Origin: Alphaproteobacteria bacterium
GTDB taxonomy: Bacteria; Pseudomonadota; Alphaproteobacteria; Bin95
Length of the DNA stretch: 64,000 bases
NCBI GenBank assembly: GCA_963665325.3
Contig: OZ224045.1
Span: 1,984,001 to 2,048,000, forward strand
Reading direction: 5' to 3'
This document shows, in pieces, positions 2,349 through 41,280 of this stretch. Under the pieces are notes generated by a model. It searched no databases. It saw only the letters and a program-made list of their open reading frames with translations, and was not told where the DNA came from. How positions within the stretch are numbered: the first letter of the stretch is position 1; every line of letters starts with the position of its first letter. A program made the translations under genes and the position numbers.

Positions 2349-2396
2349 TCCGGCATCCCCCTCGCTGCTTCGTGGAGGTGCCGATGATGCGGTGCC

Positions 2397-3542: not shown

Positions 3543-3712
3543 GGAGCGGTCTCCCTCGACGACTGCCCGGCAGGAGGCCGGTCCGGTCATCCGGCGCCTG
3601 CGGACTGTCCGGCCGCAGCCGTTTCGACTGCGGGGGCAGCGTATGCGGCAGCGGGTCGGACGGTCAAGGTTTCGGCGGACGCCCGCCTGCCCTACCGGCG
3701 GAGGGGCGGACA

Positions 3713-7334: not shown

Positions 7335-7346
7335 GAGGAGGGGAAC

Positions 7347-7886: not shown

Positions 7887-7889
7887 CCG

Positions 7890-15988: not shown

Positions 15989-16324
15989 GCGTCGGGGCAG
16001 CGGCAGGGGCATTCCTGGTGGGGGCGGTTGCGCTCTCCGGCTGCCAGACGCTGAGTGTGCTCTCGGTATCTGATGGCGGGATGGTCACGTTGTTCGATGG
16101 TTTTCAGGCGTCGGGCCGGGCGTGACGGCGGGGGTGTCGGACGGCCGTCGGCGCGTCAAGCCGCTTCGCGGCTCCTGCGCTGCGCTCCGGCCCTTCGGGT
16201 GACCCGCCGCCGTCCCTCCGACGGAGTGCATCCATGGCCGTAAGCAAGCTTCCGGCCACGGGCCGGCCGCTTTACGCAGTGTGACAATGGGAGCGGTGTT
16301 ACCCGTTACCGTTACCCTCTCTCC

Positions 16325-17323
16325 CTAGGGGTTCGAGGCGGTAACGGTTTTCGGTAACGTGTCCCTGCGGTCGTTGCCGTTGAGGGCGGCGAGGCGGTAT
16401 CCGCCTTCGGATGCGCGCTCGACGCGTCCTTCGCGGACGAGCCTGTGCAGCGCCTCGGCGACGGTTGCGGGCCGGGTTGCCGCGCGCTCGCGGATCCGGC
16501 GCTGGGAGAGCGGCGCGTCGGCGTCGGCGAGGGCCTGCAGGATGCGCCGTTCGGGGGTATCCGGCTCCGGCGCCTGGTCTTCCGGCGTCTCGCGCAACCG
16601 CAGGGCGGGGCGCTCGTCGTCGTCGGCGAGTTCGATCTCGAGGTCTTCGAGGCCAGGGGCGTCGCGATGCTCGACGGTCATGAGGATCTGGCGGTCTCGC
16701 CGGCGCAGGTACAGATTCGAATCGCCCCAGGCGTGAAGTTCGCTGCTGCCGCGCAGCGCCTGCCCGGGCCGGGAGCCGCCGCTCTTTCGTGCGTGATGGA
16801 CGAGGAGGACGGCGGTTTCGAAGCGGCGCTGTATGTCGCGCAGGAAGCCCAGCATGGGGGCGACCTCGGCGACGGTATTTTCGTCGACGCCGTGCAGGCG
16901 CACGAGGGGGTCGAGGACGACGAGGCGGGGTGAGACGCGCTCCACCGTCTCGACCAGGCGCTGGCGATCGGCGCGATGGTCGAGACGCAGCGTGGGCACG
17001 TCGATGACGGCGATGTCGAGGGTCTCGAACGCGGTGCCTGCCGCCTTTGCGATGCCCTGGAGGCGTGCGCGCACGATATGGCCGGCGTCCTCGGCGGCGA
17101 ACAGCAGCACGGGGCCGCTTGCGGCGGGACGGAAGTGGCGCAGGCAGGGGACGCCGGCGGCGACCGCGACGGCGATGTCGAGTGCGAGGAAGGATTTGCC
17201 GCACTTGGGCTCGCCGCCGACGATGCCGACGCCCTGCTCGGACCACAACGCCTCGACCATCCAGCGGCGCGCCTGGGGGCGCTCTTCGAGCTCCGCCGGC
17301 GCCCGTGTCGGGAAGCCCTTCAC
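16325..17323 (-). CDS. AAA_25 (RSF1010 RepA/DnaB-like) helicase-fold ATPase with C-terminal wHTH, copy 2
   Basis: GTG start overlaps the ExeA-like stop. Walker A GEPKCGKS, AAED, LVVLDP, VHHARK and RGSS motifs. Confidence 0.85.
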   Translation of the reverse strand: MKGFPTRAPAELEERPQARRWMVEALWSEQGVGIVGGEPKCGKSFLALDIAVAVAAGVPCLRHFRPAASGPVLLFAAEDAGHIVRARLQGIAKAAGTAFETLDIAVIDVPTLRLDHRADRQRLVETVERVSPRLVVLDPLVRLHGVDENTVAEVAPMLGFLRDIQRRFETAVLLVHHARKSGGSRPGQALRGSSELHAWGDSNLYLRRRDRQILMTVEHRDAPGLEDLEIELADDDERPALRLRETPEDQAPEPDTPERRILQALADADAPLSQRRIRERAATRPATVAEALHRLVREGRVERASEGGYRLAALNGNDRRDTLPKTVTASNP

Positions 17324-18153
17324 CGCCGCGCCCTCCTCGGCTTGGCGGGTTCGCCCAGGGTCTCGATGAAGAGCTTCTCGTCGAGGACCTCGCGCTCCTT
17401 CTCGGCGGCGGCGGCGAGCAGGGCGTCGGCCATGACGGTGAGCGCCCGCGGGTTGCCGTCGGCATGGGCGACCAGGGTGTCCTTGAGGCCCGCGGTCATG
17501 AGGCCGGGATTGCCGGCCTGCTCGATCAGATGGTCGAGCAGGGCCGCGAGGTCGCCGGCCTCGGCCTTGGTCATGACCAGGCGCTGGCGGATGCGCGAGG
17601 CGATGGGCTGCAGATCGGGCTGGCGGAGCTTGTCGAGCAGGCGCGTGTCGCCGGCGAGGACGACCGAGAGGATGGCGCGCGAGTCGAAGTCGGTCGAAGC
17701 CAGCAGGCGGATCTCGGAGAACACCGAGGGCAGCAGCTCCTGGGCCTCGTCGACGAGCACGACGGGGCGCATGCGGGTATCGTCGACATGGGCGAGCCAG
17801 CGCTCGCGCAGGCTTTTGAAGCTGGCCCAGCGGTTGTTGTACATCAGGTCGACGCCGAACATCTCGCCGATCTCGCGGTAGAAGTCGGACAGCCGGGAGG
17901 AGGGATGGGTGATGGCGGCGATGCTGAGCCCCTCGCAGCGGCCGAGACGGTCGGCGAGCAGGCGCAACGCCACACTCTTTCCGGCGCCGGGCTCGCCGGC
18001 GATCAAGGCGAAGCCGCCCTGGCGCACCAGGTGGCGCTCGATCCTGAGGCAGAAGCTGTCGACGGCAGGCGTCGCCATGAGACTGTCGACCGGCAGGTCG
18101 GTGGCGAAGGGGTTCCACTTGAGCCCGTAGAAGGTGAGCAGTTCCCGGTTCAT
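17320..18153 (-). CDS. ExeA/TnsC-like AAA+ ATPase, copy 2
   Basis: Same translation as copy 1. Confidence 0.9.
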   Translation of the reverse strand: MNRELLTFYGLKWNPFATDLPVDSLMATPAVDSFCLRIERHLVRQGGFALIAGEPGAGKSVALRLLADRLGRCEGLSIAAITHPSSRLSDFYREIGEMFGVDLMYNNRWASFKSLRERWLAHVDDTRMRPVVLVDEAQELLPSVFSEIRLLASTDFDSRAILSVVLAGDTRLLDKLRQPDLQPIASRIRQRLVMTKAEAGDLAALLDHLIEQAGNPGLMTAGLKDTLVAHADGNPRALTVMADALLAAAAEKEREVLDEKLFIETLGEPAKPRRARR

Positions 18154-19625
18154 GGCGCATCTCCCCGATCTTCGTCCTCGCCCGGACCGGGCGTCTTGTC
18201 ATGGGGCAGCCAGGCCGGCGGCAGGCCGGTTGCGGCCTGGGCGTCGAGCATGCCCTTGAGCAGCGGCGGAAGTTCCCCCGTCCCCGCGCCGCCATTGCCA
18301 TCGTTGCCGCCGGGGCCGGCGGGACGGCGCACGCCATCGGCGTTGCCGCGCTTGTCGAGGGGGTACAGCGTGCACAGGCGCTCGCCGCCTCGACCGTCGA
18401 TCAGATCGACGCTGGCGAGGTTCCAGCGCGCGTAACGGATCCAGGCCTCGCGCAGGTGGCGCCACGGCTGTGGCACCTGGTAGCGGATGCCCTCGACCGA
18501 GACGGTGCCGTCCGAGCGCCTGAGCGTGCGCTTCCTGGTGATGCGGAAGGCCGCCTTGAGCTCGGCCGAGCCGGGGCAGGATCTCGACGCGTCGACGCTC
18601 CCGGCCAGGCGTTGATGCGGCGTCATGCCGAGCTCGCGGTGCTTGCGGCGGTGATAGTCCTGCTCCAGCCAGGCGATGGTGGCGTCGTTGAGCATCTTCA
18701 AGGTAAGCGCGTCGACGCCTTCGAGCTGAGCCATCAGGCGCGATTCGACCGTGCCCCAGAACGACTCGATCTTGCCGTTCTGATGGGGGCTGTAAGCGAG
18801 CGTCGTGACCCCCGCGATGCCGAGCCGGTGCAACCCCTCCTCGACCTCGCCCGCGGTCATCGCCGCGCCGTTGTCGGTCAGCAGGGACCTCGGCAGACCG
18901 CGCTTCATGAAGGCCTGGCAAAGGCCGTGGACGAACACCTCGGCGGTCTCGGCGAGGTACCACTGAAGGTGGCAGCCGAGGCGCGAGTGGTCGTCGAGGA
19001 AGCCGAGCAGGATCGGCGTCTTCCACTCGCCCGAGGCGGTCAGCACGCGACGCTTGGCGCTGTGCATGTCGGCGTGCCACAGGGCGTGAGAGCGCGAGAC
19101 CTCGTAGCTCAATACCTCGCGGGCTTCGACCGCCGGCCTGGCCTCGCTCTCATGCCACTTGCGCCGGCGCTTGCGTACCAGCCCGCGAGCCCGCATCGCC
19201 CGGGTCAGCGTCGCGTAGGACGGTATCGGGCCGAGCTCGGGATCGGCCTCGACCCGCGCGGCCAGATTCTCGTGATGAAGCTGCGCCGACCACGACGGAT
19301 GCGCCCGGTACTGCTCGTGCAGCGCCTCGATCAGCGTCGGCGACATCGCGCGCGGGCGCCCGGCATCGGCGCGCGGGCGCCGCTTGAGCGCCCCCACCGG
19401 ATCGTTGTCCGCCGCCCGCGCCTGGTAGTACCAGCGCTCGATCGTGGACACCGCGAAGCGCACCCGGCCCTTGCCGGACGGGTGATCCCACTCGCGTTCG
19501 GCAAGCCGCTCAAGCTCGGCGTGCAGCCGCCCCGCCGGCGGCGGCGAGGCCAGAAGCGGCCCGACCACCGCGAAGCGCAACCGCGCCCACCGGTCGCGAC
19601 GCTCGCTCCCGTCGTTGCTGTTCAT
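18150..19625 (-). CDS. DDE transposase, copy 2
   Basis: Same translation as copy 1. Confidence 0.92.
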   Translation of the reverse strand: MNSNDGSERRDRWARLRFAVVGPLLASPPPAGRLHAELERLAEREWDHPSGKGRVRFAVSTIERWYYQARAADNDPVGALKRRPRADAGRPRAMSPTLIEALHEQYRAHPSWSAQLHHENLAARVEADPELGPIPSYATLTRAMRARGLVRKRRRKWHESEARPAVEAREVLSYEVSRSHALWHADMHSAKRRVLTASGEWKTPILLGFLDDHSRLGCHLQWYLAETAEVFVHGLCQAFMKRGLPRSLLTDNGAAMTAGEVEEGLHRLGIAGVTTLAYSPHQNGKIESFWGTVESRLMAQLEGVDALTLKMLNDATIAWLEQDYHRRKHRELGMTPHQRLAGSVDASRSCPGSAELKAAFRITRKRTLRRSDGTVSVEGIRYQVPQPWRHLREAWIRYARWNLASVDLIDGRGGERLCTLYPLDKRGNADGVRRPAGPGGNDGNGGAGTGELPPLLKGMLDAQAATGLPPAWLPHDKTPGPGEDEDRGDAP

Positions 19626-19673
19626 TCCGGCATCCCCCTCGCTGCTTCGTGGAGGTGCCGATGATGCGGTGCC

Positions 19674-20288
19674 CTATCCGTGCATCATAGAAACGCTTTC
19701 TGCGGGCGAAGCCGGACCTGCGCCGAGCGCGCAAAAGCCGGTCCACGGCATCAGCCAGACCAGGCTCCGCAGCAGCCGCGAGCGGAAGCCACGGCCCCGC
19801 ATGATGCGCAGCAGCCGGCGCAGCGGCGCCTCTTCGGGCGGCGCCGCCAGCTCGCCCCGTCTCGCCTGCCACTCCCGGGTCAGCGGGAAGGCTTCCAGCC
19901 ACCAGCGCCGCCAGCGCTTCAGCGTCGAGGCCGGAACCCCGCACCGCCGCGCGATCGTCTGCAACCGCGCGCCGCCGGCCACAGCCAGCGCACTCACCAC
20001 AAGGAACAGCGCCCCGACGTAAAAGCGCCTGCCGAAGAAACGCACCGACGGCGGCTTCACGCGGCGTCGGCACACCGAACAGCACAGGCTGAAGCGCCGA
20101 ACGTCGTTCCGAAGATTCGCCGCCAGACCGTGCGGCTTGCGCGGGTAGCTCGCGCTGTGAAGCGCGCCGCCGCAGCGCGGGCAACCCGCCGCCCGGCACG
20201 CCTCCGCCTCGGCCGCGTCGACCTGCTTCAGAAAATCCCAAACCCGGGCGTTGGAGAGATTGGAGTGCCGGAACAGCTTGTGCGACAT
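19674..20288 (-). CDS. Zn-finger/HTH protein, copy 2
   Basis: Same translation as copy 1. Confidence 0.75.
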   Translation of the reverse strand: MSHKLFRHSNLSNARVWDFLKQVDAAEAEACRAAGCPRCGGALHSASYPRKPHGLAANLRNDVRRFSLCCSVCRRRVKPPSVRFFGRRFYVGALFLVVSALAVAGGARLQTIARRCGVPASTLKRWRRWWLEAFPLTREWQARRGELAAPPEEAPLRRLLRIMRGRGFRSRLLRSLVWLMPWTGFCALGAGPASPAESVSMMHG

Positions 20289-20894
20289 TGGGGCCGTCTC
20301 AGGTTGATGTCACTGTCACCGAGACAAGCCCTCCGGCGGCCTTCTTGCAAGATCGCCGGGGGGCACCCAATCCAAAACCTCGATTAATCCGAGCCGATCA
20401 GCCCCTGATCGCCGCTGAAAGCCTGCGCCCGCTCAGACGCTGGATTTCGGCCGGGACCCGGTTCCGAAGGAAGGCAACGGCTCGGTCATGGACCCGGCCG
20501 AAGCGCGCCTGGCGGAAGCGGTGCTTAGTGCCGAACGGTCGCTGTCGCTGATCGCGGAGACGCGCTCGGCCGAGGCGGACCTGAGGGTTCCGGACGTGCC
20601 GGAGAATGTGCCGCCCGAACTGCTTCTGAAGGTGACCCTGGACTACATCGGGCCGCTGGAGGAGCTGGCGCGGCAGCTGGCGGCGGGCGCAGGCTACGGG
20701 CTGGTGACGGCGGGCCGTCCGCCGCCGGCGCCGGTGCTGGTCGAGATCGAGGCGGATGACACGCCGCTCATCCACATCTTCAGGGATGCCGGCATGCAGG
20801 CGGCCGACCGCGCGCTTCTGACGGTGGACGCCGGCCGCATGACCGTGCGCCTTGACTGGTTCGAGGCCGAACCGCGCGCGCAGGGAACCGGCGG

Positions 20895-25167: not shown

Positions 25168-25872
25168 AGGCAGGGGAGCGTCTCGGTCTCGAGGATCACG
25201 AGATGCGCAGCGTGGCGGCGTCTCTCTGGTGGAGTTTCACCTTGTTGTGCGCAGGAATGGTGGCGGTATGGCCGGTCACCGGAGGGCCCTGGGTTCTGCC
25301 TGCATATGGGCTGGGGGCTGCCCTGGCGTTTGTTGCGATGAGGATGCACGGGGCGGCTCTCGGGCGGGGGGAGAGTGGGAGCCGCTTTCGTCGCATGACG
25401 GGAGAGCTGCTCGTTCGGTGGGACCCGAGACCTGTCGCGATCCTGGTAACGGTCATGTGCGCTGTGTGGCTTGTCGCGGGGTTCCTGCTTGTTCCGTCCG
25501 AAGTGTTGTCTGGCGTGGAAAACCCCGGAGCGACAAAGGCGGAGATCGATGAAGCGTTTGAGGCACGCCTGAACGGGTTCGTAGAGCGGGCAGCGCCGTT
25601 GCGGGTGGCGGTGGCGGTTTTCGGATTGGTTGGAGCGGTCTGCGCCGGTCTGTCGGACTGGCTTTGGCTCGGCACGGTCGCAGGGAGGCTTGGGGTGAAG
25701 CCCTGGCAGGTCTTGCCGGTCGGGCTGAGCGGGCGCAGGCTTTCAGCGGCGATCAGGGGCTGATCGGCTCGGATTAATCGAGGTTTTGGATTGGGTGCCC
25801 CCCGGCGATCTTGCAAGAAGGCCGCCGGAGGGCTTGTCTCGGTGACAGTGACATCAACCTGAGACGGCCCCA

Positions 25873-26487
25873 ATGTCGCACAAGCTGTTCCGGCACTCCA
25901 ATCTCTCCAACGCCCGGGTTTGGGATTTTCTGAAGCAGGTCGACGCGGCCGAGGCGGAGGCGTGCCGGGCGGCGGGTTGCCCGCGCTGCGGCGGCGCGCT
26001 TCACAGCGCGAGCTACCCGCGCAAGCCGCACGGTCTGGCGGCGAATCTTCGGAACGACGTTCGGCGCTTCAGCCTGTGCTGTTCGGTGTGCCGACGCCGC
26101 GTGAAGCCGCCGTCGGTGCGTTTCTTCGGCAGGCGCTTTTACGTCGGGGCGCTGTTCCTTGTGGTGAGTGCGCTGGCTGTGGCCGGCGGCGCGCGGTTGC
26201 AGACGATCGCGCGGCGGTGCGGGGTTCCGGCCTCGACGCTGAAGCGCTGGCGGCGCTGGTGGCTGGAAGCCTTCCCGCTGACCCGGGAGTGGCAGGCGAG
26301 ACGGGGCGAGCTGGCGGCGCCGCCCGAAGAGGCGCCGCTGCGCCGGCTGCTGCGCATCATGCGGGGCCGTGGCTTCCGCTCGCGGCTGCTGCGGAGCCTG
26401 GTCTGGCTGATGCCGTGGACCGGCTTTTGCGCGCTCGGCGCAGGTCCGGCTTCGCCCGCAGAAAGCGTTTCTATGATGCACGGATAG
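25873..26487 (+). CDS. Zn-finger/HTH protein, copy 3
   Basis: Same translation as the other copies. Confidence 0.75.
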   Translation: MSHKLFRHSNLSNARVWDFLKQVDAAEAEACRAAGCPRCGGALHSASYPRKPHGLAANLRNDVRRFSLCCSVCRRRVKPPSVRFFGRRFYVGALFLVVSALAVAGGARLQTIARRCGVPASTLKRWRRWWLEAFPLTREWQARRGELAAPPEEAPLRRLLRIMRGRGFRSRLLRSLVWLMPWTGFCALGAGPASPAESVSMMHG

Positions 26488-26535
26488 GGCACCGCATCAT
26501 CGGCACCTCCACGAAGCAGCGAGGGGGATGCCGGA

Positions 26536-28011
26536 ATGAACAGCAACGACGGGAGCGAGCGTCGCGACCGGTGGGCGCGGTTGCGCTTCGCGGTGGTCGG
26601 GCCGCTTCTGGCCTCGCCGCCGCCGGCGGGGCGGCTGCACGCCGAGCTTGAGCGGCTTGCCGAACGCGAGTGGGATCACCCGTCCGGCAAGGGCCGGGTG
26701 CGCTTCGCGGTGTCCACGATCGAGCGCTGGTACTACCAGGCGCGGGCGGCGGACAACGATCCGGTGGGGGCGCTCAAGCGGCGCCCGCGCGCCGATGCCG
26801 GGCGCCCGCGCGCGATGTCGCCGACGCTGATCGAGGCGCTGCACGAGCAGTACCGGGCGCATCCGTCGTGGTCGGCGCAGCTTCATCACGAGAATCTGGC
26901 CGCGCGGGTCGAGGCCGATCCCGAGCTCGGCCCGATACCGTCCTACGCGACGCTGACCCGGGCGATGCGGGCTCGCGGGCTGGTACGCAAGCGCCGGCGC
27001 AAGTGGCATGAGAGCGAGGCCAGGCCGGCGGTCGAAGCCCGCGAGGTATTGAGCTACGAGGTCTCGCGCTCTCACGCCCTGTGGCACGCCGACATGCACA
27101 GCGCCAAGCGTCGCGTGCTGACCGCCTCGGGCGAGTGGAAGACGCCGATCCTGCTCGGCTTCCTCGACGACCACTCGCGCCTCGGCTGCCACCTTCAGTG
27201 GTACCTCGCCGAGACCGCCGAGGTGTTCGTCCACGGCCTTTGCCAGGCCTTCATGAAGCGCGGTCTGCCGAGGTCCCTGCTGACCGACAACGGCGCGGCG
27301 ATGACCGCGGGCGAGGTCGAGGAGGGGTTGCACCGGCTCGGCATCGCGGGGGTCACGACGCTCGCTTACAGCCCCCATCAGAACGGCAAGATCGAGTCGT
27401 TCTGGGGCACGGTCGAATCGCGCCTGATGGCTCAGCTCGAAGGCGTCGACGCGCTTACCTTGAAGATGCTCAACGACGCCACCATCGCCTGGCTGGAGCA
27501 GGACTATCACCGCCGCAAGCACCGCGAGCTCGGCATGACGCCGCATCAACGCCTGGCCGGGAGCGTCGACGCGTCGAGATCCTGCCCCGGCTCGGCCGAG
27601 CTCAAGGCGGCCTTCCGCATCACCAGGAAGCGCACGCTCAGGCGCTCGGACGGCACCGTCTCGGTCGAGGGCATCCGCTACCAGGTGCCACAGCCGTGGC
27701 GCCACCTGCGCGAGGCCTGGATCCGTTACGCGCGCTGGAACCTCGCCAGCGTCGATCTGATCGACGGTCGAGGCGGCGAGCGCCTGTGCACGCTGTACCC
27801 CCTCGACAAGCGCGGCAACGCCGATGGCGTGCGCCGTCCCGCCGGCCCCGGCGGCAACGATGGCAATGGCGGCGCGGGGACGGGGGAACTTCCGCCGCTG
27901 CTCAAGGGCATGCTCGACGCCCAGGCCGCAACCGGCCTGCCGCCGGCCTGGCTGCCCCATGACAAGACGCCCGGTCCGGGCGAGGACGAAGATCGGGGAG
28001 ATGCGCCATGA
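26536..28011 (+). CDS. DDE transposase, copy 3
   Basis: DDE motifs; RBS GAGGGGG. Confidence 0.92.
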   Translation: MNSNDGSERRDRWARLRFAVVGPLLASPPPAGRLHAELERLAEREWDHPSGKGRVRFAVSTIERWYYQARAADNDPVGALKRRPRADAGRPRAMSPTLIEALHEQYRAHPSWSAQLHHENLAARVEADPELGPIPSYATLTRAMRARGLVRKRRRKWHESEARPAVEAREVLSYEVSRSHALWHADMHSAKRRVLTASGEWKTPILLGFLDDHSRLGCHLQWYLAETAEVFVHGLCQAFMKRGLPRSLLTDNGAAMTAGEVEEGLHRLGIAGVTTLAYSPHQNGKIESFWGTVESRLMAQLEGVDALTLKMLNDATIAWLEQDYHRRKHRELGMTPHQRLAGSVDASRSCPGSAELKAAFRITRKRTLRRSDGTVSVEGIRYQVPQPWRHLREAWIRYARWNLASVDLIDGRGGERLCTLYPLDKRGNADGVRRPAGPGGNDGNGGAGTGELPPLLKGMLDAQAATGLPPAWLPHDKTPGPGEDEDRGDAP

Positions 28012-28841
28012 ACCGGGAACTGCTCACCTTCTACGGGCTCAAGTGGAACCCCTTCGCCACCGACCTGCCGGTCGACAGTCTCATGGCGACGCCTGCCGTC
28101 GACAGCTTCTGCCTCAGGATCGAGCGCCACCTGGTGCGCCAGGGCGGCTTCGCCTTGATCGCCGGCGAGCCCGGCGCCGGAAAGAGTGTGGCGTTGCGCC
28201 TGCTCGCCGACCGTCTCGGCCGCTGCGAGGGGCTCAGCATCGCCGCCATCACCCATCCCTCCTCCCGGCTGTCCGACTTCTACCGCGAGATCGGCGAGAT
28301 GTTCGGCGTCGACCTGATGTACAACAACCGCTGGGCCAGCTTCAAAAGCCTGCGCGAGCGCTGGCTCGCCCATGTCGACGATACCCGCATGCGCCCCGTC
28401 GTGCTCGTCGACGAGGCCCAGGAGCTGCTGCCCTCGGTGTTCTCCGAGATCCGCCTGCTGGCTTCGACCGACTTCGACTCGCGCGCCATCCTCTCGGTCG
28501 TCCTCGCCGGCGACACGCGCCTGCTCGACAAGCTCCGCCAGCCCGATCTGCAGCCCATCGCCTCGCGCATCCGCCAGCGCCTGGTCATGACCAAGGCCGA
28601 GGCCGGCGACCTCGCGGCCCTGCTCGACCATCTGATCGAGCAGGCCGGCAATCCCGGCCTCATGACCGCGGGCCTCAAGGACACCCTGGTCGCCCATGCC
28701 GACGGCAACCCGCGGGCGCTCACCGTCATGGCCGACGCCCTGCTCGCCGCCGCCGCCGAGAAGGAGCGCGAGGTCCTCGACGAGAAGCTCTTCATCGAGA
28801 CCCTGGGCGAACCCGCCAAGCCGAGGAGGGCGCGGCGGTGA
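28008..28841 (+). CDS. ExeA/TnsC-like AAA+ ATPase, copy 3
   Basis: Walker A and B motifs; ATGA coupling to the transposase. Confidence 0.9.
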   Translation: MNRELLTFYGLKWNPFATDLPVDSLMATPAVDSFCLRIERHLVRQGGFALIAGEPGAGKSVALRLLADRLGRCEGLSIAAITHPSSRLSDFYREIGEMFGVDLMYNNRWASFKSLRERWLAHVDDTRMRPVVLVDEAQELLPSVFSEIRLLASTDFDSRAILSVVLAGDTRLLDKLRQPDLQPIASRIRQRLVMTKAEAGDLAALLDHLIEQAGNPGLMTAGLKDTLVAHADGNPRALTVMADALLAAAAEKEREVLDEKLFIETLGEPAKPRRARR

Positions 28842-29836
28842 AGGGCTTCCCGACACGGGCGCCGGCGGAGCTCGAAGAGCGCCCCCAGGCGCGCCGCTGG
28901 ATGGTCGAGGCGTTGTGGTCCGAGCAGGGCGTCGGCATCGTCGGCGGCGAGCCCAAGTGCGGCAAATCCTTCCTCGCACTCGACATCGCCGTCGCGGTCG
29001 CCGCCGGCGTCCCCTGCCTGCGCCACTTCCGTCCCGCCGCAAGCGGCCCCGTGCTGCTGTTCGCCGCCGAGGACGCCGGCCATATCGTGCGCGCACGCCT
29101 CCAGGGCATCGCAAAGGCGGCAGGCACCGCGTTCGAGACCCTCGACATCGCCGTCATCGACGTGCCCACGCTGCGTCTCGACCATCGCGCCGATCGCCAG
29201 CGCCTGGTCGAGACGGTGGAGCGCGTCTCACCCCGCCTCGTCGTCCTCGACCCCCTCGTGCGCCTGCACGGCGTCGACGAAAATACCGTCGCCGAGGTCG
29301 CCCCCATGCTGGGCTTCCTGCGCGACATACAGCGCCGCTTCGAAACCGCCGTCCTCCTCGTCCATCACGCACGAAAGAGCGGCGGCTCCCGGCCCGGGCA
29401 GGCGCTGCGCGGCAGCAGCGAACTTCACGCCTGGGGCGATTCGAATCTGTACCTGCGCCGGCGAGACCGCCAGATCCTCATGACCGTCGAGCATCGCGAC
29501 GCCCCTGGCCTCGAAGACCTCGAGATCGAACTCGCCGACGACGACGAGCGCCCCGCCCTGCGGTTGCGCGAGACGCCGGAAGACCAGGCGCCGGAGCCGG
29601 ATACCCCCGAACGGCGCATCCTGCAGGCCCTCGCCGACGCCGACGCGCCGCTCTCCCAGCGCCGGATCCGCGAGCGCGCGGCAACCCGGCCCGCAACCGT
29701 CGCCGAGGCGCTGCACAGGCTCGTCCGCGAAGGACGCGTCGAGCGCGCATCCGAAGGCGGATACCGCCTCGCCGCCCTCAACGGCAACGACCGCAGGGAC
29801 ACGTTACCGAAAACCGTTACCGCCTCGAACCCCTAG
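28838..29836 (+). CDS. AAA_25 RepA-like helicase with wHTH (332 aa), copy 3
   Basis: GTGA coupling with RBS GAGGAGG; RecA-fold helicase motifs. Confidence 0.85.
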   Translation: MKGFPTRAPAELEERPQARRWMVEALWSEQGVGIVGGEPKCGKSFLALDIAVAVAAGVPCLRHFRPAASGPVLLFAAEDAGHIVRARLQGIAKAAGTAFETLDIAVIDVPTLRLDHRADRQRLVETVERVSPRLVVLDPLVRLHGVDENTVAEVAPMLGFLRDIQRRFETAVLLVHHARKSGGSRPGQALRGSSELHAWGDSNLYLRRRDRQILMTVEHRDAPGLEDLEIELADDDERPALRLRETPEDQAPEPDTPERRILQALADADAPLSQRRIRERAATRPATVAEALHRLVREGRVERASEGGYRLAALNGNDRRDTLPKTVTASNP

Positions 29837-30037
29837 GGAGAGAGGGTAACGGTAACGGGTAACACCGCTCCCATTGTCACACTGCGTAAAGCGGCCGGCC
29901 CGTGGCCGGAAGCTTGCTTACGGCCATGGATGCACTCCGTCGGAGGGACGGCGGCGGGTCACCCGAAGGGCCGGAGCGCAGCGCAGGAGCCGCGAAGCGG
30001 CTTGACGCGCCGACGGCCGTCCGACACCCCCGCCGTC
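29802..30037. promoter_or_regulatory. Iteron-like repeats and hairpin cluster near one transposon end (putative origin); also present in copies 2 and 4
   Basis: CGTTACCG at 29802 and 29815; palindrome CCCTAGGG at 29831; GGTAAC at 29845, 29851 and 29858; hairpins at 29903-29926, 29962-29970 and 29988-30002. Function is inferred. Confidence 0.55.
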
Positions 30038-30210
30038 ACGCCCGGCCCGACGCCTGAAAACCATCGAACAACGTGACCATCCCGCCATCAGATACCGAGA
30101 GCACACTCAGGGCCGGCAGATCCCGACTGGTGCGGTCTTGCGGAGAGGGAGCGGGCCCGGCGCCGGAGTTATCTGAGGGACGGGGGCGTCGTCCAGGATG
30201 GGGAAGGTCG

Positions 30211-31095
30211 ATGAAACGGTTCGGGAAACAGATGGCGGCCTGGCTCGTGACGCTTGCAGCGGGCGCCGCGACGATCGGATGGACAATGGACATCAAGACG
30301 GCATCGGGCCGGGAGGCGGGCGGAGCCCTTGTGGCCGGTCTTCGCACGAACGGAGCGGAGGTGAAGCCGCTCGGTCGCAGGGGAGCGCTCGAAGGGTGGC
30401 TGGTCACGCCTCGCGGCAAGCCGCCTTACACGCTTTATGTGGACGAGAGCGGCCATGGGGTGATGGGGCTGCTGTTCGGGCCCGACGGCCGGGAGCTGAC
30501 GGGCAGGCAGGTGGCGTCCATCAGGGAAGATGTGGAGCGCCTGCCCGGCAATGTCCGGGAGCCGCCCGGGGCTTCCGCATCGGAGGTTGAGCCGCTGACG
30601 GAGGTTTCGCGGGTTGCGCCGGGGCCGGCTCGCGGAGGGTTGGCGCCGGCGCCGGCGGCGGGAGTTCTGGAGGCGGCCCTGGCGGCGGAAGGGTTCGACC
30701 TCGGCGAGGCCGGGCCGCAGGTCGCGATCTTCGCCGACCCGACCTGCCTTCCTTCCCGTGCGGCGGTTGCGGAGCTTGCGCGCCGTGCGCTCGACGGCGG
30801 GATCGTGTTGCGCGTGGTGCCTGTAGGGGCGCGCGGCGCGGAGGCCGAGGTCATGGCCGCGCTGGTGCTGGGTGCGGAGGACCGGGCGCGGACCTGGTTC
30901 ACGCTCGACCGCGAGGACGAATGGCCGGCGTTGAGTTCGGATGCCGCGGCCGGGGTGGCGCTGAACCGGCGGTTGTTCGGGCGCACGGGGTCGGAGTTCG
31001 TTCCGTATGCGTTGATGCGGGAGCCGTCCGGAGAGGTCGTTTCCGCCGTCGGTCTGGAGTTCCGGCAATGGTTCGGCGAGGGGACGGCGAGGTGA
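30211..31095 (+). CDS. DsbG/TrbB-like thioredoxin-fold periplasmic protein with CxxS site
   Basis: N-terminal hydrophobic segment; DsbG-like N-domain (GLLFGPDGRELT); IFADPTCLPS; VVPVG; FVP cis-Pro-like loop. Confidence 0.7.
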   Translation: MKRFGKQMAAWLVTLAAGAATIGWTMDIKTASGREAGGALVAGLRTNGAEVKPLGRRGALEGWLVTPRGKPPYTLYVDESGHGVMGLLFGPDGRELTGRQVASIREDVERLPGNVREPPGASASEVEPLTEVSRVAPGPARGGLAPAPAAGVLEAALAAEGFDLGEAGPQVAIFADPTCLPSRAAVAELARRALDGGIVLRVVPVGARGAEAEVMAALVLGAEDRARTWFTLDREDEWPALSSDAAAGVALNRRLFGRTGSEFVPYALMREPSGEVVSAVGLEFRQWFGEGTAR

Positions 31096-31436: not shown

Positions 31437-31805
31437 ATGCGGGTTTGGCTGAAACGGGCGGCGGATGCGGGTTCGGGGGCCTCGGTGGCGGCGGCCGTGC
31501 TTGCGGTTTTTTGCCTTGGGGGCGCGGCGCCGGGACTGGCCGACCGGTACGGGAGCAAGGCGCAGGATCTGCTGCTGCGGTGGGCGCCGGGAGAGGACGC
31601 CTCCGGGTGGGTCCTGCATGCGGCTTTTGTGCTGGCGCTGGCGTTCTGGGCTGTCCTCGCCGTGCGGGCATGGTGGTACGGCAGCACGGTCGGATTTGTC
31701 GTCTACGCGGTGTGGTTCATCGTCTTTGCCGCAGGCTGGGTATTCGGTCTGGAGTTCCTGGAGGCGTGGGTCCTGTGGGATCCGGCGCCCTGGTGGGCGC
31801 GATGA
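31437..31805 (+). CDS. Hypothetical membrane protein
   Basis: Three hydrophobic segments; stop overlaps the dotI ATG. Confidence 0.55.
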   Translation: MRVWLKRAADAGSGASVAAAVLAVFCLGGAAPGLADRYGSKAQDLLLRWAPGEDASGWVLHAAFVLALAFWAVLAVRAWWYGSTVGFVVYAVWFIVFAAGWVFGLEFLEAWVLWDPAPWWAR

Positions 31806-32446
31806 GCGATCTGCGCCAGGCGGTCGCAGCGGCGGCGCGGAGCCTCTCTTTCGAGCGTTCGGCGCATCACGGCTGGCGGCGGATCGCGTTCGTGCTGCTT
31901 GTGATGAACGTGCTGCTGACCGTGGCGCTCTGGAGCTATATCGACCTTCACGACACGGTCTATGTGACGATCGCGGCGACGCCGGACGGCAAGATCATCG
32001 AGGCGCAGGGGCTGGAAGAGCCGGTGCGCACGGATGCCTCGCTGAAGAACTGGGCGGTGACGGCGGTCACGGAGGCGTTCACCTTCGGACATCACGACTG
32101 GCGGCCCAGGCTCTCGGCGGTGCGGGTCTATTTCACGGACGAGGGCTTCGACTCCTTCGTGGCGGGGCTCGAGGAGAGCCTCTATCTCGACCGGATCAGG
32201 GACAACTACCAGGTCGCGAGCGCGGTGGCGCAGGGCGCGCCGGTAATCACGGATGCGCGGATATTCGCGGACGGGCGCGCCGGCTGGCAGCTCGAGTTCC
32301 CGATGCTGATCACGTTCCACGCAGGCCGGAAGACCTCGTCCACGAAGATGGTGACGAAGGTGCTCGTGATGCGGGTGCCGTTCGACGAGCGGGCGTCCGG
32401 CATCGGCATCGAGCAGATTTTCGTGACGAAGGCGGTGCGGACATGA
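31802..32446 (+). CDS. dotI: DotI/IcmL/TraM (VirB8-like)
   Basis: Single TM, ATPDGKII, NWAVTAV...FTFGHHDWR, YFTDEGF and WQLEFPM motifs. Confidence 0.88.
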   Translation: MSDLRQAVAAAARSLSFERSAHHGWRRIAFVLLVMNVLLTVALWSYIDLHDTVYVTIAATPDGKIIEAQGLEEPVRTDASLKNWAVTAVTEAFTFGHHDWRPRLSAVRVYFTDEGFDSFVAGLEESLYLDRIRDNYQVASAVAQGAPVITDARIFADGRAGWQLEFPMLITFHAGRKTSSTKMVTKVLVMRVPFDERASGIGIEQIFVTKAVRT

Positions 32447-35514: not shown

Positions 35515-37316
35515 GCGGCCGGGCGCGGTGTTCCGCCAGCTGAACGACACGGTCCGTTATTGGTGGACCTTGCGGCGCAAGCCGCTGGAGGCGTTCATGG
35601 AGCCGGTGGCGCTGGCCGGCGACGCACTGCTCTGCCAGGACGGCTCGCTGGTGACGCTGCTGCGCATCGAGGGCTCGCGTTCGATCACGGGCGCGCGCGA
35701 GCTCGCGCAGTTCGTGGAGCTGGCGCAGCGGCGCCTGAACGGCGGCTTTCTCGACCGGGGACATGCGCTGCATGTCATGCTGGAGCGCGCGCCGGATGCG
35801 GCGCGGGCCGCGATCGATGCCGCGGCAGGGCGCCAGCGGCGGCAGTCGGAGCGTCTCGGCCTGGCGCTGGACGATGTGATCGCGGAGCGGTCCGGGCGGC
35901 TGGCGGAGCTGCTCACGGGCGAGACGGGGGTCATGGCGTGCTGGACCCGGCCGCAAACAGTGCCCGGTCCGCAGCTCACTCGCGAGAAGAAGGAGCGGAA
36001 GAAGCAGCTGAAGGGCTGGCTTCCGGCGCTGCGGGACTCGCAGTGCCCGCTCCAGGTCGTTGACAGCCTGCCGCCGCGCCATGAGGCGTTCGTGGCGACG
36101 GTAACGTCGCTTCTCGGCGAGGCGGGGCTGATGGCGGAGCAGCTGGGCTCGCACGAGGCGGTGCGGTCGATGCGGGCGCTGTTGAACGGGCCGGACGCGG
36201 CCGGGCCGGACTGGCGGCCGGTCGGGCCCGGGGACGAGGCCTGGCCGCGGTTCACGGAGCCGCCGGAGCTGGGCTCGTTCCCGCCCCCGCTCGCGCCGCA
36301 GCTTCTGGTTCGGGAGCCTGAGGTCGAAGCGGGAGGTCTCCGGATCGGGGGCAGGCTGTACGGGGCGGTGGACATGGTGCTCGGGCCCCGCCTGGAACGG
36401 CCGTTCTCGGAGCTCATGACCAGGCTTGCGGAGGCGGATATCCCGTTCCGGTTCTCGATGGTAATCGAAGGCGGCGGGATGGCGGGTTCGGGGCCGTCGG
36501 TCGCGCTCGCGGCGGCCTCGGTGCTGGCCGTGACCTCCGAGGACAGCCGGCACGTAAGGGACGCGCTCATCGGCCTGCGGGCGGTGCGCAGCGACGAGCA
36601 GGCGGTGGTGCGGGTGCGGATCGGGTTGCTGACCTGGGTGGAGGAAGAGGAGGACGAGGCGGCTCTGGCCCGACGTCTCGGGCGCATGCAGCAGATCTGC
36701 GAGGGCTGGGGCGAGTGCGAGTTCTCGCCGCTGGTGGGGGACATCCTGGAGGCGTTTGCGGGAACGGTGCCGGGATTTGCGCTTGGCGGGACGCCGGAGC
36801 CGGCGCTGGCGCCGCTTTCGAAGGTGCTCGGCATGCTGCCGCTGTTCCGTCCGGCATCCGCGGTGAGGCCGGACCGGGCCGACTACCTCTTCCGGAGCGA
36901 GGACGGCAAGCCGCTCGGCTACAGCCTGGAGGAGAGCGGGGATTTCGGGTTCGACCTGGTTTACGGGATACCGGGGCGCGGCAAGAGCGTGCTGCTGGGC
37001 TCGCTGTCGCTGGCGTTCTGCCTGCAGGGCGGTCGCCGGCGCCTGAGTGTGCTCTCGGTATCTGATGGCGGGATGGTCACGTTGTTCGATGGTTTTCAGG
37101 CGTCGGGCCGGGCGTGACGGCGGGGGTGTCGGACGGCCGTCGGCGCGTCAAGCCGCTTCGCGGCTCCTGCGCTGCGCTCCGGCCCTTCGGGTGACCCGCC
37201 GCCGTCCCTCCGACGGAGTGCATCCATGGCCGTAAGCAAGCTTCCGGCCACGGGCCGGCCGCTTTACGCAGTGTGACAATGGGAGCGGTGTTACCCGTTA
37301 CCGTTACCCTCTCTCC

Positions 37317-38315
37317 CTAGGGGTTCGAGGCGGTAACGGTTTTCGGTAACGTGTCCCTGCGGTCGTTGCCGTTGAGGGCGGCGAGGCGGTATCCGCCTTC
37401 GGATGCGCGCTCGACGCGTCCTTCGCGGACGAGCCTGTGCAGCGCCTCGGCGACGGTTGCGGGCCGGGTTGCCGCGCGCTCGCGGATCCGGCGCTGGGAG
37501 AGCGGCGCGTCGGCGTCGGCGAGGGCCTGCAGGATGCGCCGTTCGGGGGTATCCGGCTCCGGCGCCTGGTCTTCCGGCGTCTCGCGCAACCGCAGGGCGG
37601 GGCGCTCGTCGTCGTCGGCGAGTTCGATCTCGAGGTCTTCGAGGCCAGGGGCGTCGCGATGCTCGACGGTCATGAGGATCTGGCGGTCTCGCCGGCGCAG
37701 GTACAGATTCGAATCGCCCCAGGCGTGAAGTTCGCTGCTGCCGCGCAGCGCCTGCCCGGGCCGGGAGCCGCCGCTCTTTCGTGCGTGATGGACGAGGAGG
37801 ACGGCGGTTTCGAAGCGGCGCTGTATGTCGCGCAGGAAGCCCAGCATGGGGGCGACCTCGGCGACGGTATTTTCGTCGACGCCGTGCAGGCGCACGAGGG
37901 GGTCGAGGACGACGAGGCGGGGTGAGACGCGCTCCACCGTCTCGACCAGGCGCTGGCGATCGGCGCGATGGTCGAGACGCAGCGTGGGCACGTCGATGAC
38001 GGCGATGTCGAGGGTCTCGAACGCGGTGCCTGCCGCCTTTGCGATGCCCTGGAGGCGTGCGCGCACGATATGGCCGGCGTCCTCGGCGGCGAACAGCAGC
38101 ACGGGGCCGCTTGCGGCGGGACGGAAGTGGCGCAGGCAGGGGACGCCGGCGGCGACCGCGACGGCGATGTCGAGTGCGAGGAAGGATTTGCCGCACTTGG
38201 GCTCGCCGCCGACGATGCCGACGCCCTGCTCGGACCACAACGCCTCGACCATCCAGCGGCGCGCCTGGGGGCGCTCTTCGAGCTCCGCCGGCGCCCGTGT
38301 CGGGAAGCCCTTCAC
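37317..38315 (-). CDS. AAA_25 RepA-like helicase with wHTH, copy 4
   Basis: Same translation as the other copies. Confidence 0.85.
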   Translation of the reverse strand: MKGFPTRAPAELEERPQARRWMVEALWSEQGVGIVGGEPKCGKSFLALDIAVAVAAGVPCLRHFRPAASGPVLLFAAEDAGHIVRARLQGIAKAAGTAFETLDIAVIDVPTLRLDHRADRQRLVETVERVSPRLVVLDPLVRLHGVDENTVAEVAPMLGFLRDIQRRFETAVLLVHHARKSGGSRPGQALRGSSELHAWGDSNLYLRRRDRQILMTVEHRDAPGLEDLEIELADDDERPALRLRETPEDQAPEPDTPERRILQALADADAPLSQRRIRERAATRPATVAEALHRLVREGRVERASEGGYRLAALNGNDRRDTLPKTVTASNP

Positions 38316-39145
38316 CGCCGCGCCCTCCTCGGCTTGGCGGGTTCGCCCAGGGTCTCGATGAAGAGCTTCTCGTCGAGGACCTCGCGCTCCTTCTCGGCGG
38401 CGGCGGCGAGCAGGGCGTCGGCCATGACGGTGAGCGCCCGCGGGTTGCCGTCGGCATGGGCGACCAGGGTGTCCTTGAGGCCCGCGGTCATGAGGCCGGG
38501 ATTGCCGGCCTGCTCGATCAGATGGTCGAGCAGGGCCGCGAGGTCGCCGGCCTCGGCCTTGGTCATGACCAGGCGCTGGCGGATGCGCGAGGCGATGGGC
38601 TGCAGATCGGGCTGGCGGAGCTTGTCGAGCAGGCGCGTGTCGCCGGCGAGGACGACCGAGAGGATGGCGCGCGAGTCGAAGTCGGTCGAAGCCAGCAGGC
38701 GGATCTCGGAGAACACCGAGGGCAGCAGCTCCTGGGCCTCGTCGACGAGCACGACGGGGCGCATGCGGGTATCGTCGACATGGGCGAGCCAGCGCTCGCG
38801 CAGGCTTTTGAAGCTGGCCCAGCGGTTGTTGTACATCAGGTCGACGCCGAACATCTCGCCGATCTCGCGGTAGAAGTCGGACAGCCGGGAGGAGGGATGG
38901 GTGATGGCGGCGATGCTGAGCCCCTCGCAGCGGCCGAGACGGTCGGCGAGCAGGCGCAACGCCACACTCTTTCCGGCGCCGGGCTCGCCGGCGATCAAGG
39001 CGAAGCCGCCCTGGCGCACCAGGTGGCGCTCGATCCTGAGGCAGAAGCTGTCGACGGCAGGCGTCGCCATGAGACTGTCGACCGGCAGGTCGGTGGCGAA
39101 GGGGTTCCACTTGAGCCCGTAGAAGGTGAGCAGTTCCCGGTTCAT
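38312..39145 (-). CDS. ExeA/TnsC-like AAA+ ATPase, copy 4
   Basis: Same translation as the other copies. Confidence 0.9.
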   Translation of the reverse strand: MNRELLTFYGLKWNPFATDLPVDSLMATPAVDSFCLRIERHLVRQGGFALIAGEPGAGKSVALRLLADRLGRCEGLSIAAITHPSSRLSDFYREIGEMFGVDLMYNNRWASFKSLRERWLAHVDDTRMRPVVLVDEAQELLPSVFSEIRLLASTDFDSRAILSVVLAGDTRLLDKLRQPDLQPIASRIRQRLVMTKAEAGDLAALLDHLIEQAGNPGLMTAGLKDTLVAHADGNPRALTVMADALLAAAAEKEREVLDEKLFIETLGEPAKPRRARR

Positions 39146-40617: not shown

Positions 40618-40665
40618 TCCGGCATCCCCCTCGCTGCTTCGTGGAGGTGCCGATGATGCGGTGCC

Positions 40666-41280
40666 CTATCCGTGCATCATAGAAACGCTTTCTGCGGGCG
40701 AAGCCGGACCTGCGCCGAGCGCGCAAAAGCCGGTCCACGGCATCAGCCAGACCAGGCTCCGCAGCAGCCGCGAGCGGAAGCCACGGCCCCGCATGATGCG
40801 CAGCAGCCGGCGCAGCGGCGCCTCTTCGGGCGGCGCCGCCAGCTCGCCCCGTCTCGCCTGCCACTCCCGGGTCAGCGGGAAGGCTTCCAGCCACCAGCGC
40901 CGCCAGCGCTTCAGCGTCGAGGCCGGAACCCCGCACCGCCGCGCGATCGTCTGCAACCGCGCGCCGCCGGCCACAGCCAGCGCACTCACCACAAGGAACA
41001 GCGCCCCGACGTAAAAGCGCCTGCCGAAGAAACGCACCGACGGCGGCTTCACGCGGCGTCGGCACACCGAACAGCACAGGCTGAAGCGCCGAACGTCGTT
41101 CCGAAGATTCGCCGCCAGACCGTGCGGCTTGCGCGGGTAGCTCGCGCTGTGAAGCGCGCCGCCGCAGCGCGGGCAACCCGCCGCCCGGCACGCCTCCGCC
41201 TCGGCCGCGTCGACCTGCTTCAGAAAATCCCAAACCCGGGCGTTGGAGAGATTGGAGTGCCGGAACAGCTTGTGCGACAT
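40666..41280 (-). CDS. Zn-finger/HTH protein, copy 4
   Basis: Same translation as the other copies. Confidence 0.75.
   Translation of the reverse strand: MSHKLFRHSNLSNARVWDFLKQVDAAEAEACRAAGCPRCGGALHSASYPRKPHGLAANLRNDVRRFSLCCSVCRRRVKPPSVRFFGRRFYVGALFLVVSALAVAGGARLQTIARRCGVPASTLKRWRRWWLEAFPLTREWQARRGELAAPPEEAPLRRLLRIMRGRGFRSRLLRSLVWLMPWTGFCALGAGPASPAESVSMMHG

Follow-up and report, generated by a model that had tools for sequence, protein, structure and literature searches.

The DNA considered here, hereafter the window, is a stretch of 64,000 nucleotides (nt) from an Alphaproteobacteria bacterium (GTDB Bin95; assembly GCA_963665325.3, contig OZ224045.1, positions 1,984,001-2,048,000 of the forward strand), in which a transposable element of 4,384 bp occupies positions 25726-30109 on the plus strand. 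The element carries four genes, the open reading frames (ORFs) ORF1 to ORF4, the last of which encodes a protein of the RepA/DnaB helicase type. It is almost certainly a real and recently active transposon of the Tn6049 family that bears a helicase cassette, and this cassette suggests that the element brings along part of the replication apparatus needed for its own copying. The best reading, to which we give an even chance, is that of a Tn6049-family transposon with a portable replication module, the exact role of which we infer; slightly below even we place the narrower proposal that the cassette acts in the step of transposition in which the DNA is replicated.

The host genome (5.58 Mb on 5 contigs, 67% G+C) was searched with window positions 25500-30400, and 24 end-to-end matches to positions 25726-30109 were retrieved, distributed over the 5 contigs and sharing the same limits, with ends TGAG...CTCA. 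All but two are 100% identical to the focal element and these two differ by one gap (99.98%); one of the 22 identical copies is split, at element position 4108-4111, by an insertion of 2,070 bp (contig C1, 2,290,873-2,292,942) that made a 4-bp duplication and is presumably another insertion sequence. Exact direct repeats flank 20 of the 24 copies, with a length of 4 bp in 8 copies, 5 bp in 10 and 6 bp in 2, and no flanking repeat was found for the remaining 4. The duplications have no sequence in common except that they are G+C-rich, like the genome. For the focal copy, the duplicated target is the tetranucleotide GGGC, found on the left at 25722-25725 and on the right at 30110-30113. The element is mobile, as seen from its 24 copies and their target duplications. 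Comparison of the ends across relatives delimits a left end (25726-25800) with the terminal repeat and one or more subterminal sites similar to those on the right, and a right end (30032-30109) with the terminal repeat and two subterminal sites (...TTCGATGG and ...TCTGATGG, on the complementary strand). The two ends have TGAG in common as well as repeated sites of the type ...T.T(C/T)(A/G)(A/G)(T/C)GG, and in one relative (L058; numbers with an L designate the loci compared) 24 of 24 terminal bases are common to both ends. From their sequence, the subterminal sites are presumed to be bound by the transposase.

The four ORFs are co-oriented and located at 25873-26487, 26536-28011, 28008-28841 and 28838-29836, with overlaps of 4 bases between ORF2 and ORF3 (ATGA) and between ORF3 and ORF4 (GTGA). 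A consensus scan detected no promoter-like site in the element, and three terminator-like sites where 2.0 were expected. A sequence-only reading of this DNA had described a TG...CA element of 4,384 bp at these positions with target-site duplications, and four genes encoding a Zn-finger/helix-turn-helix (HTH) protein, a DDE transposase, an ExeA-like ATPase and an AAA_25 protein; the limits proved exact in the 24 copies, duplications accompany 20 of them, and the ORFs and their Pfam matches agree with this anatomy. The identification of the fourth protein as a RepA-type RecA-fold helicase with a winged helix likewise held in Pfam, against the RepA structure 1g8y and in AlphaFold2/Foldseek comparisons. 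Translational coupling of the last three genes, also proposed, would fit the two overlaps. As for the supposed lack of cargo, apart from the four, no ORF of gene size looks like a probable gene, and we hence see no cargo gene, but the 273-bp non-coding stretch at the 3' end of the element is not an empty spacer: it holds a conserved structured element that the reading had overlooked.

ORF4 (28838-29836, plus strand; 332 amino acids, aa) consists of a RecA-fold helicase domain (about residues 10-245) followed by a C-terminal winged helix-turn-helix (about residues 255-310), as delineated from Pfam, the PDB and an AlphaFold2 model. The Pfam family AAA_25 matches with 124.7 bits (cut-off 27), together with winged-helix families. 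RepA of RSF1010 (1g8y) is the best solved relative, with E=2.4e-8 for the single sequence and E=6.6e-18 for the family profile, and the same profile reaches DnaB with E=2e-4. The AlphaFold2 model (predicted local distance difference test, pLDDT, 91.1) retrieved RepA, RadA and DnaB as top folds in Foldseek; RepA ranked 1, 2 and 8 with target-normalised template modelling scores (TM-scores) of 0.69-0.75, the first two ranks having 0.71 and 0.75. Seven residues (K43, E78, D138, R142, E148, R191 and R220) are invariant among 66 sequences, down to 35% identity, and comprise what we take, after the RepA literature, to be the Walker A, catalytic glutamate, Walker B and arginine finger positions. The ORF4 family is large (489 clusters at E<=1e-30) and nearly absent from the plasmid collection, which gave 4 weak matches of 27-31% identity. 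One relative (P0269) carries a DnaB N-terminal domain before the AAA_25 and winged-helix domains. A complex prediction for ORF3 and ORF4 scored 0.00, a value that, obtained without controls, speaks neither for nor against binding. Judged from sequence, ORF4 is a putative helicase that may have a loading site in the element.

The three genes upstream form the core of the transposon. ORF1 (25873-26487, plus strand; 204 aa), the first gene, is conserved in the Tn6049 family and encodes a Cys-rich, Zn-ribbon-like region (CxxC...CCxxC, read directly from the sequence) and a helix-turn-helix (Pfam HTH_23, 27.1 bits for a cut-off of 24.6); C36, C39, C69, C70 and C73 are invariant in 9 sequences, and its AlphaFold2 model is poor (pLDDT 57.7). 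ORF2 (26536-28011, plus strand; 491 aa) is a DDE transposase of the rve type with an N-terminal HTH, identified by Pfam, NCBIfam and its catalytic residues. It matches rve, rve_3 and HTH_32, each just under the Pfam gathering score, and its best NCBIfam model is IS481 (NF033577), with 123.9 bits for a cut-off of 224; the Mu transposase C-terminal domain (PF09299) was not found in Pfam at E<=0.01. D186, D251 and E287 are invariant across the transposases of the two helicase-bearing lineages described below (types A and B) and of Tn6049. ORF3 (28008-28841, plus strand; 277 aa) is an AAA+ ATPase of the AAA_22/ExeA type (Pfam AAA_22, 72.6 bits), whose nearest solved relative by sequence is MuB (8xvb; E=5.1e-7 for the family profile against the PDB, over the AAA+ core). 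Given the invariant catalytic triad of ORF2 and the proximity of ORF3 to MuB, the core can be described as a Mu-like A/B pair accompanied by a small Zn/HTH protein.

This three-gene backbone is already known and is catalogued as Tn6049. A search of plasmid proteins with ORF2 yielded 21 records with at least 80% coverage, all at about 50% identity, including pMOL28 and pMOL30 of Cupriavidus metallidurans CH34. On these plasmids, four successive genes encode proteins of 181 aa ('transposase'), 479 aa ('IS481 family transposase'), 277 aa ('AAA family ATPase') and 71 aa (hypothetical), an order that is also that of pBPHYT01. By tblastn, Tn6049-type elements (L011, L012, and the two further three-gene contigs L094 and L095) are 35-44% identical to the focal element in ORF1, 46-51% in ORF2 and 47-53% in ORF3, with the same order and strand. 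Tn6049 is described as a 3.5-kb element present in 12 copies in C. metallidurans CH34, all with the ATPase gene gspA (PMC2864759); imperfect inverted repeats of 12 bp and direct repeats of 4 bp are reported for it (PMC4739549), and in the words of one paper its 'transposition module could not be categorized' (PMC6210171). All four Tn6049-type loci contain the first three genes and none has the AAA_25 gene, which is therefore an add-on and not part of the family core. The transposase was also sought in 400 sampled other genomes of the phylum, of which 8 matched at E<=1e-20 and none above 52% identity, and no near-identical element DNA was found in the plasmid collection.

Homologues of ORF4 were studied in the best 80 genome loci (69-81% identity, from 17 assemblies), which are not independent, many of them being copies within one genome. 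The assemblies are labelled Alphaproteobacteria, Chloroflexota/Dehalococcoidia, Acidimicrobiales and Acidobacteria; the binning of short repeat contigs is unreliable, one Dehalococcoidia contig being nonetheless 442 kb long. An ORF4 homologue lies directly behind an AAA_22 gene in all 80 loci, and a DDE transposase gene is also present in 78, the contig ending first in the other 2. Two backbones are found. Type A (47 of the 80 loci) is that of the focal element, with 63-87% identity in ORF1 (full-length matches), 74-87% in ORF2 and 72-91% in ORF3. In type B (33 loci) the transposase and the ATPase are only 25-29% identical to those of the focal element; such elements measure about 4.38 kb (for example L074:2973-7352), have TGTTGT... 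ends, a different Cys-rich first ORF and an AAA_22 ATPase, and their IS481-like transposase (NCBIfam, 213.3 bits for a cut-off of 224) contains the Mu C-terminal domain PF09299 (28.7 bits). When whole elements were compared by blastn, DNA homology between the two types was limited to element position 3103-4306 (28828-30031 of the window, plus strand), with 76-80% identity. This portable cassette comprises ORF4 and about 195 bp downstream. The type-B-linked ORF4 proteins form one clade (support 100/99) beside two type A sequences, which indicates that the cassette was transferred once and was then stably inherited with each backbone. One other assembly harbours many copies of both lineages, accounting for at least 45 type A and type B loci among the best 80, and relatives of the element also occur in sponge, coral and marine sequence libraries.

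The sequence downstream of ORF4 comes in two forms. Some type A elements of 5.19 kb have five genes and diverge from the focal element near the C-terminus of ORF4; their fifth gene, 3' of the helicase gene, encodes a primase-like protein of 289 aa with DUF3991 and Toprim_2 domains. It was found in 10 of the 80 loci, from 7 assemblies (L070, at 7103-7972, L041, L043, L049, L052, L053, L071, L073, L084 and L092), none of which has the structured motif described below. Conversely, 67 loci carry the motif (66 exactly, 1 with one mismatch) and no Toprim gene, no locus carries both, and 3 carry neither, 2 of these having less than 170 nt of downstream sequence. Motif and Toprim primase are hence mutually exclusive across the 80 loci. 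The sequence-only reading had wished to see the synteny surveyed, and in the 80 loci the ORF4 gene lies without exception behind AAA_22; the replication-related role it had considered for the fourth protein is favoured by the primase-like gene and by the DnaB N-terminal domain of one relative. Its suggestion that the fourth gene may be a core component did not hold, since Tn6049-type relatives do without the AAA_25 gene in 4 of 4 loci and Tn6049 nevertheless attained 12 copies in CH34. Close relatives devoid of this gene, which it had named as evidence against its proposal, therefore exist in part of the family: the gene is absent from the Tn6049-type loci and accompanies AAA_22 in every ORF4 locus.

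The stretch 3' of ORF4 is better conserved than the coding sequence in the alignment of relatives and contains three structured parts, all on the plus strand. An imperfect palindrome of GTTACC / GGTAAC repeats, read from the sequence, surrounds the ORF4 stop codon (29803-29863) and is predicted to form a long hairpin under RNA and DNA parameters alike; relatives keep the inverted arrangement with another repeat word (GTTCCC / GGGAAC), and the encoded C-terminal tail changes. The alignments further contain a hairpin at 29900-29929 with a 9-bp stem and a 12-nt loop, the stem pairing of which is kept across contexts with different sequences; it is predicted in the RNA fold and, in the DNA fold, in the centroid only and not in the minimum-energy structure. 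At 29939-30025 follows a four-way-junction motif, recognised from alignment and covariation, with a 33-nt core (29958-29990) that is invariant except at three free positions, a variable hairpin, the heptanucleotide GCTTGAC (30000-30006) and a covarying enclosing helix. RNAalifold applied to 44 non-redundant sequences predicts a four-way junction inside a long helix, with compensatory changes in 13 of 27 pairs. Paired cells amount to 93.2% in this alignment and to 79.1% after shuffling; for covariation, the alignment scores 0.321 and shuffles 0.097, none of 500 shuffles reaching 0.321 and slid controls giving 0.035-0.103; the three core helices never vary, and this support applies to the varying pairs only. 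The 251-nt region of the focal element folds better than its shuffles both as RNA (z=-3.79) and as DNA (z=-2.81).

Within the host genome, the motif is confined to the 24 element copies, and its pattern was not found, with up to one mismatch, in the 400 sampled genomes of the phylum. No Rfam family (4,227 covariance models) matched the element at E<=1, nor did any match overlap the motif in 8 other motif-bearing loci. The exact 33-nt pattern was recovered from at least 120 stretches in a scan of metagenome contigs, and among these the context of 80 loci (L104-L183) was studied. ORF4 lies upstream of the motif in 13 of them. In 12 others, genes for IS110-family transposases adjoin it, the motif being located on the opposite strand inside the 3' non-coding region of the element in 10 and downstream on the same strand in 2. 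A relaxase-type helicase ORF resembling RecD/TraA is its neighbour in 3 loci and an IS91-like ORF lies 510 nt upstream in 1, both kinds of ORF having been recognised by eye. A stand-alone structured unit of about 330 nt with two domains is found between unrelated genes in 9 loci according to a script pattern, and in about ten more by eye; a few further motif loci lie near a ...GCTCA end resembling that of type A, behind ORFs without Pfam match. The motif is a module found in several unrelated mobile elements, not a private site of ORF4. In most contexts its plus strand is oriented like the gene that precedes it, and by our own tally there are about twice as many G-U type pairs as A-C type mismatches. 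The motif may act as DNA or as RNA.

Several individual motif loci present further particularities. The IS110-family elements with an internal motif (L105, L112, L129, L131, L140, L144, L149, L170, L173 and L183) have a long conserved non-coding region, estimated at about 430 nt, 3' of the transposase gene, in which an internal stretch (…CGCTACC…) repeats the sequence of the element end, as might suit a bridge or seek guide RNA region. At L107, the motif and a type-A-like ...GCTCA end accompany three ORFs (714-4196, 4236-5123 and 5180-6277; 1,160, 295 and 365 aa) without any Pfam match at E<=0.001. A group II intron directly follows the variable hairpin at L148 (about 2,700-2,964; Rfam group-II-D1D4-3, 66.7 bits), the 5' end of another one, recognised by eye, adjoins a hairpin of the structured unit at L114, on the opposite strand and upstream of the motif, and a frame judged by eye to be integrase-like interrupts the motif at L180. 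Known classes of structured sequence were also considered for the motif. An integron-like gene cassette with the motif as attC was ruled out, neither GTTRRRY nor RYYYAAC boxes being visible at the limits of the cassette, and so were a tRNA-like element, by the sizes of the arms, an intrinsic terminator, as no T tract lies 3' of the structure, and an IS110 bridge or seek RNA, given that the motif is also found in DDE transposons without such a recombinase.

On the preferred reading, in which the cassette is a portable replication module, the ORF3 ATPase would presumably capture and activate the target DNA, and insertion gives target duplications of 4-5 bp. DDE transposition without a second-strand nuclease would lead to a forked strand-transfer or figure-eight intermediate that has to be replicated across the element. 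The lineage has also acquired a 1.2-kb cassette made of the helicase-winged helix gene and about 250 nt of structured nucleic acid (palindrome, hairpin and four-way junction). The winged helix would bring the helicase to the right-end region, where the helicase may load itself and open the fork, the structured DNA acting as the signal at which host enzymes load or prime, a part that the Toprim primase would take over in sister elements. The copying step could then become independent of the host restart primosome. A role in DNA synthesis is suggested by the conserved catalytic residues of ORF4, the fusion of a DnaB N-terminal domain in a relative and the primase-like gene as alternative partner; functional integration with transposition is suggested by the fixed position of the cassette, its overlap with the gene of the MuB-like protein and the fact that both backbones have inherited it stably.

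Several points weigh against this reading. The replicative mode, the helicase activity and the loading site are deductions from sequence. The motif also occurs without a helicase gene nearby and thus need not be ORF4's own site, and its strand direction and the excess of G-U pairs suit RNA and single-stranded DNA alike. At one type B locus (L051), sequence downstream of ORF4 is at hand, yet both motif and primase are missing. The best DNA run gives the contigs that match the element exactly a depth of 583-668, about 21-24 times the 27.5-28.5 of the flanks; the 24 integrated copies explain this depth, which consequently gives no sign of extra replicating copies. A joint of left end to right end, as expected for a circle, was not found among the joints listed for contigs of three RNA libraries and one DNA run. 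Finally, the Tn6049-type elements spread without helicase, reaching 12 copies in CH34, so that the cassette is dispensable for the basic reaction.

Part of these observations would suit a plasmid-like passenger, in which ORF4 with the structured DNA (or the primase) constitutes a minimal replicon or selfish passenger carried by the transposon, an explanation that we consider improbable; equally improbable in our view are its two consequences, that the excised circle persists or amplifies, or that the cassette does nothing for transposition. The cassette is separable, having moved between two backbones, and a Tn6049-type core works without it (PMC2864759). Its single fixed position and, in type A, the 4-base overlap with the ATPase gene sit less easily with a mere passenger, as does the fact that it was kept with each backbone through diversification, with one clade per backbone. 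A helicase, a primase and repeats are the logic of small replicons such as RSF1010, which the content of the cassette resembles; however, the element provides no initiator protein besides the winged helix of ORF4, no circle junction appears among the joints listed, and the depth of exact contigs in the one DNA run suits 24 integrated copies with no excess.

Two other roles have been envisaged for ORF4. It could, as the sequence-only reading had also suggested, be a target selector or regulator that takes the place of TniQ, TnsD or TnsE and recruits the AAA+ ATPase to, for example, replicating or conjugating DNA, which we hold to be quite improbable; the route by which it would do so, through its winged helix or an affinity for forked or single-stranded DNA, has the same low standing. 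Its gene directly follows the AAA+ gene, as tniQ does in the known gene order of Tn5053-type elements, which makes the likeness to TniQ one of position, no TniQ-family match was found among the four proteins at E<=0.01, and 8 of the 24 copies are gathered within 120 kb in a region with a DotI/IcmL type IVB secretion gene. Yet this clustering is equally well explained by tolerance of insertions in an integrated mobile element, the target duplications have no common sequence beyond G+C-richness, the catalytic residues of the helicase are strictly conserved, and the DnaB N-terminal domain in a relative and the primase-like alternative partner point to DNA synthesis. A function as recombination helper, comparable to RadA/Sms, a DnaB-like branch-migration helicase, is very unlikely in our opinion, and hardly any more credit can be given to its corollary that ORF4 resolves cointegrates or helps to close the gap in the donor by means of a sister copy, thereby restoring the element at the donor site. 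Such a helper would suit an element that encodes no resolvase, 4 of the 24 copies are without target duplications, as expected after recombination between copies, and the RadA of Streptococcus pneumoniae (8rxc) is among the top three folds with scores close to those of RepA. In sequence, on the other hand, ORF4 is much closer to RepA (E=6.6e-18) and RadA is absent from the search at E<=0.01, and the Toprim partner and DnaB N-terminal fusion suit replication better.

A stronger form of the replication-module reading can be formulated, which we regard as rather unlikely: helicase and structured DNA (or helicase and Toprim primase) would together be a portable 'fork starter' that lets a Mu-like DDE transposon replicate without the host restart primosome. 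Under this form, and with as little confidence, the elements would be partly self-replicating bacterial transposons. It would also imply, again as a speculative proposal, that the motif is either a non-coding RNA of a new kind or the representative of a new and widespread class of signals for priming or loading on single strands. Independent adoption of the module by two DDE lineages, by IS110 elements and by loci with relaxase-type helicase or IS91-like genes would have to be supposed too, and is similarly doubtful.

The surroundings of the focal copy deserve a few words. The window contains three more copies of the element, all on the minus strand (1-3158, which is partial and cut by the window start, 16052-20435 and 37044-41427), and belongs to a part of contig C1 (1,982,775-2,101,890) in which 8 of the 24 copies are found within 120 kb. 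This region, whose DotI/IcmL type IVB secretion gene is located at 31790-32446 of the window, 1.7 kb from the focal copy, has a positive GC skew of unusual strength (about 0.10) and may be a conjugative element that has integrated there and attracts or tolerates insertions. Genome-wide, 17 of the 24 copies are on the minus strand; no clear origin or terminus emerges from the cumulative GC skew of the contigs. A model of the empty site places the insertion of the focal copy near the junction of two frames, long open frames being common at 67% G+C. Contigs from RNA libraries of three studies contain relatives of the whole element (85-99% alike), contigs that show neither transcription, strand nor ends.

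The sequence-only reading had known of no characterised element with this architecture. This applies to the helicase-bearing form, which was not found in the literature searched, but not to its three-gene backbone, catalogued as Tn6049. In the papers searched, with their supplements, ISfinder and TnCentral lying outside the search, we came upon no DDE transposon described as having a RepA-like or AAA_25 helicase, nor upon the helicase-bearing four-gene form, the primase variant, the cassette transfer or the junction motif; a stretch of 14 letters from the motif was found in no paper. The structured motif may be something new in its own right: being common to mechanistically unrelated mobile elements, it is a concrete candidate for a new functional class of DNA or RNA. 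Only in phage Mu, which relies on host restart proteins, is it well understood how a replicative or copy-out DDE transposon obtains its replication fork. Here, a very compact transposon of 4.4 kb, with four genes and no cargo, encodes a replicative-type helicase, and its sister elements add a primase-like protein. These elements are highly successful, with 24 copies in this genome, at least 45 loci in one other assembly and relatives in assemblies that bear the labels of four phyla. Should the helicase serve transposition, they would offer a simple system in which to define the minimal requirements of fork assembly at a transposition intermediate, and a bacterial counterpart of the self-synthesizing transposons of eukaryotes and archaea.

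Among known systems, Tn6049 (C. metallidurans CH34; P. aeruginosa pHS87a; Paraburkholderia phytofirmans pBPHYT01) is the closest, having the same first three genes in the same order and, at its right end, ...TTCGATGG and ...ATTGATGG sites similar to the subterminal sites described above. According to published descriptions, 4-bp direct repeats (PMC4739549) are common to Tn6049 and 8 of the present copies, and a high copy number is another shared trait, with 12 copies in CH34 (PMC2864759) and 24 here. The ends differ (TGTG...CACA in Tn6049, TGAG...CTCA here), and the fourth position is occupied in Tn6049 by an ORF of 71 aa without known function, behind which lies a simple hairpin, whereas the present element has the 332-aa helicase and the structured region. 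Thus the first three genes, their order, short inverted repeats and 4-bp duplications are those of the Tn6049 family, but the size of about 3.5 kb and the small fourth ORF are not; Tn6049, at 3.5 kb, contains neither the AAA_25 helicase nor the four-way-junction motif of the 4,384-bp element.

More distant likenesses concern single components. IS481 is the best NCBIfam model for the transposases of both backbones, which have its D-D-E rve core and N-terminal HTH, with both scores below 224; IS481 elements are single-gene insertion sequences without AAA+ ATPase, Zn-ribbon protein or helicase. The element does not belong to IS21, the NCBIfam IS21 model scoring 45.1 bits for a cut-off of 160 and ORF3 having no IstB_IS21 match in Pfam at E<=0.01. 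Tn5053/Tn402 and Tn7-like elements similarly combine a DDE transposase, an AAA+ regulator and then a third gene, and make short target duplications. Here, however, the third partner is a RecA-fold helicase, and the four ORFs contain no TnsA endonuclease or TniR resolvase domain. The TniQ family was not matched by any of the four proteins in Pfam or NCBIfam at E<=0.01, TniB and TnsC were not among the matches at this threshold, and no TnsC was found in the profile search of the PDB with ORF3 at E<=1. RepA of RSF1010 (1g8y, 1nlf, 1olo) is the best match of ORF4 in both sequence and fold; both have a single RecA-fold domain without the DnaB-type N-terminal domain, and the Walker A lysine and the acidic and arginine residues align. 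ORF4 differs from RepA (279 aa) by an additional C-terminal winged helix of about 80 residues, by an identity of about 20% in the fold alignment, and by its location in a transposon, where its gene overlaps that of a MuB-like ATPase, whereas RepA belongs to a plasmid replication operon.

Phage Mu provides a parallel for the core, as its MuA/MuB proteins also pair a DDE transposase with an AAA+ activator of target DNA, and ORF3 is nearest to MuB. TG...CA ends, multiple end-binding sites (presumed here) and 5-bp duplications are likewise features of both; for the copying step of Mu, a helicase is loaded at the strand-transfer fork, and the host PriA and DnaB are used for replication. The present element is not a phage but a 4.4-kb transposon, its ORF2 has no match at E<=0.01 to the Mu-transpos_C domain that is found in type B, and, unlike Mu, which relies on the host PriA/DnaB, it encodes a helicase of its own.

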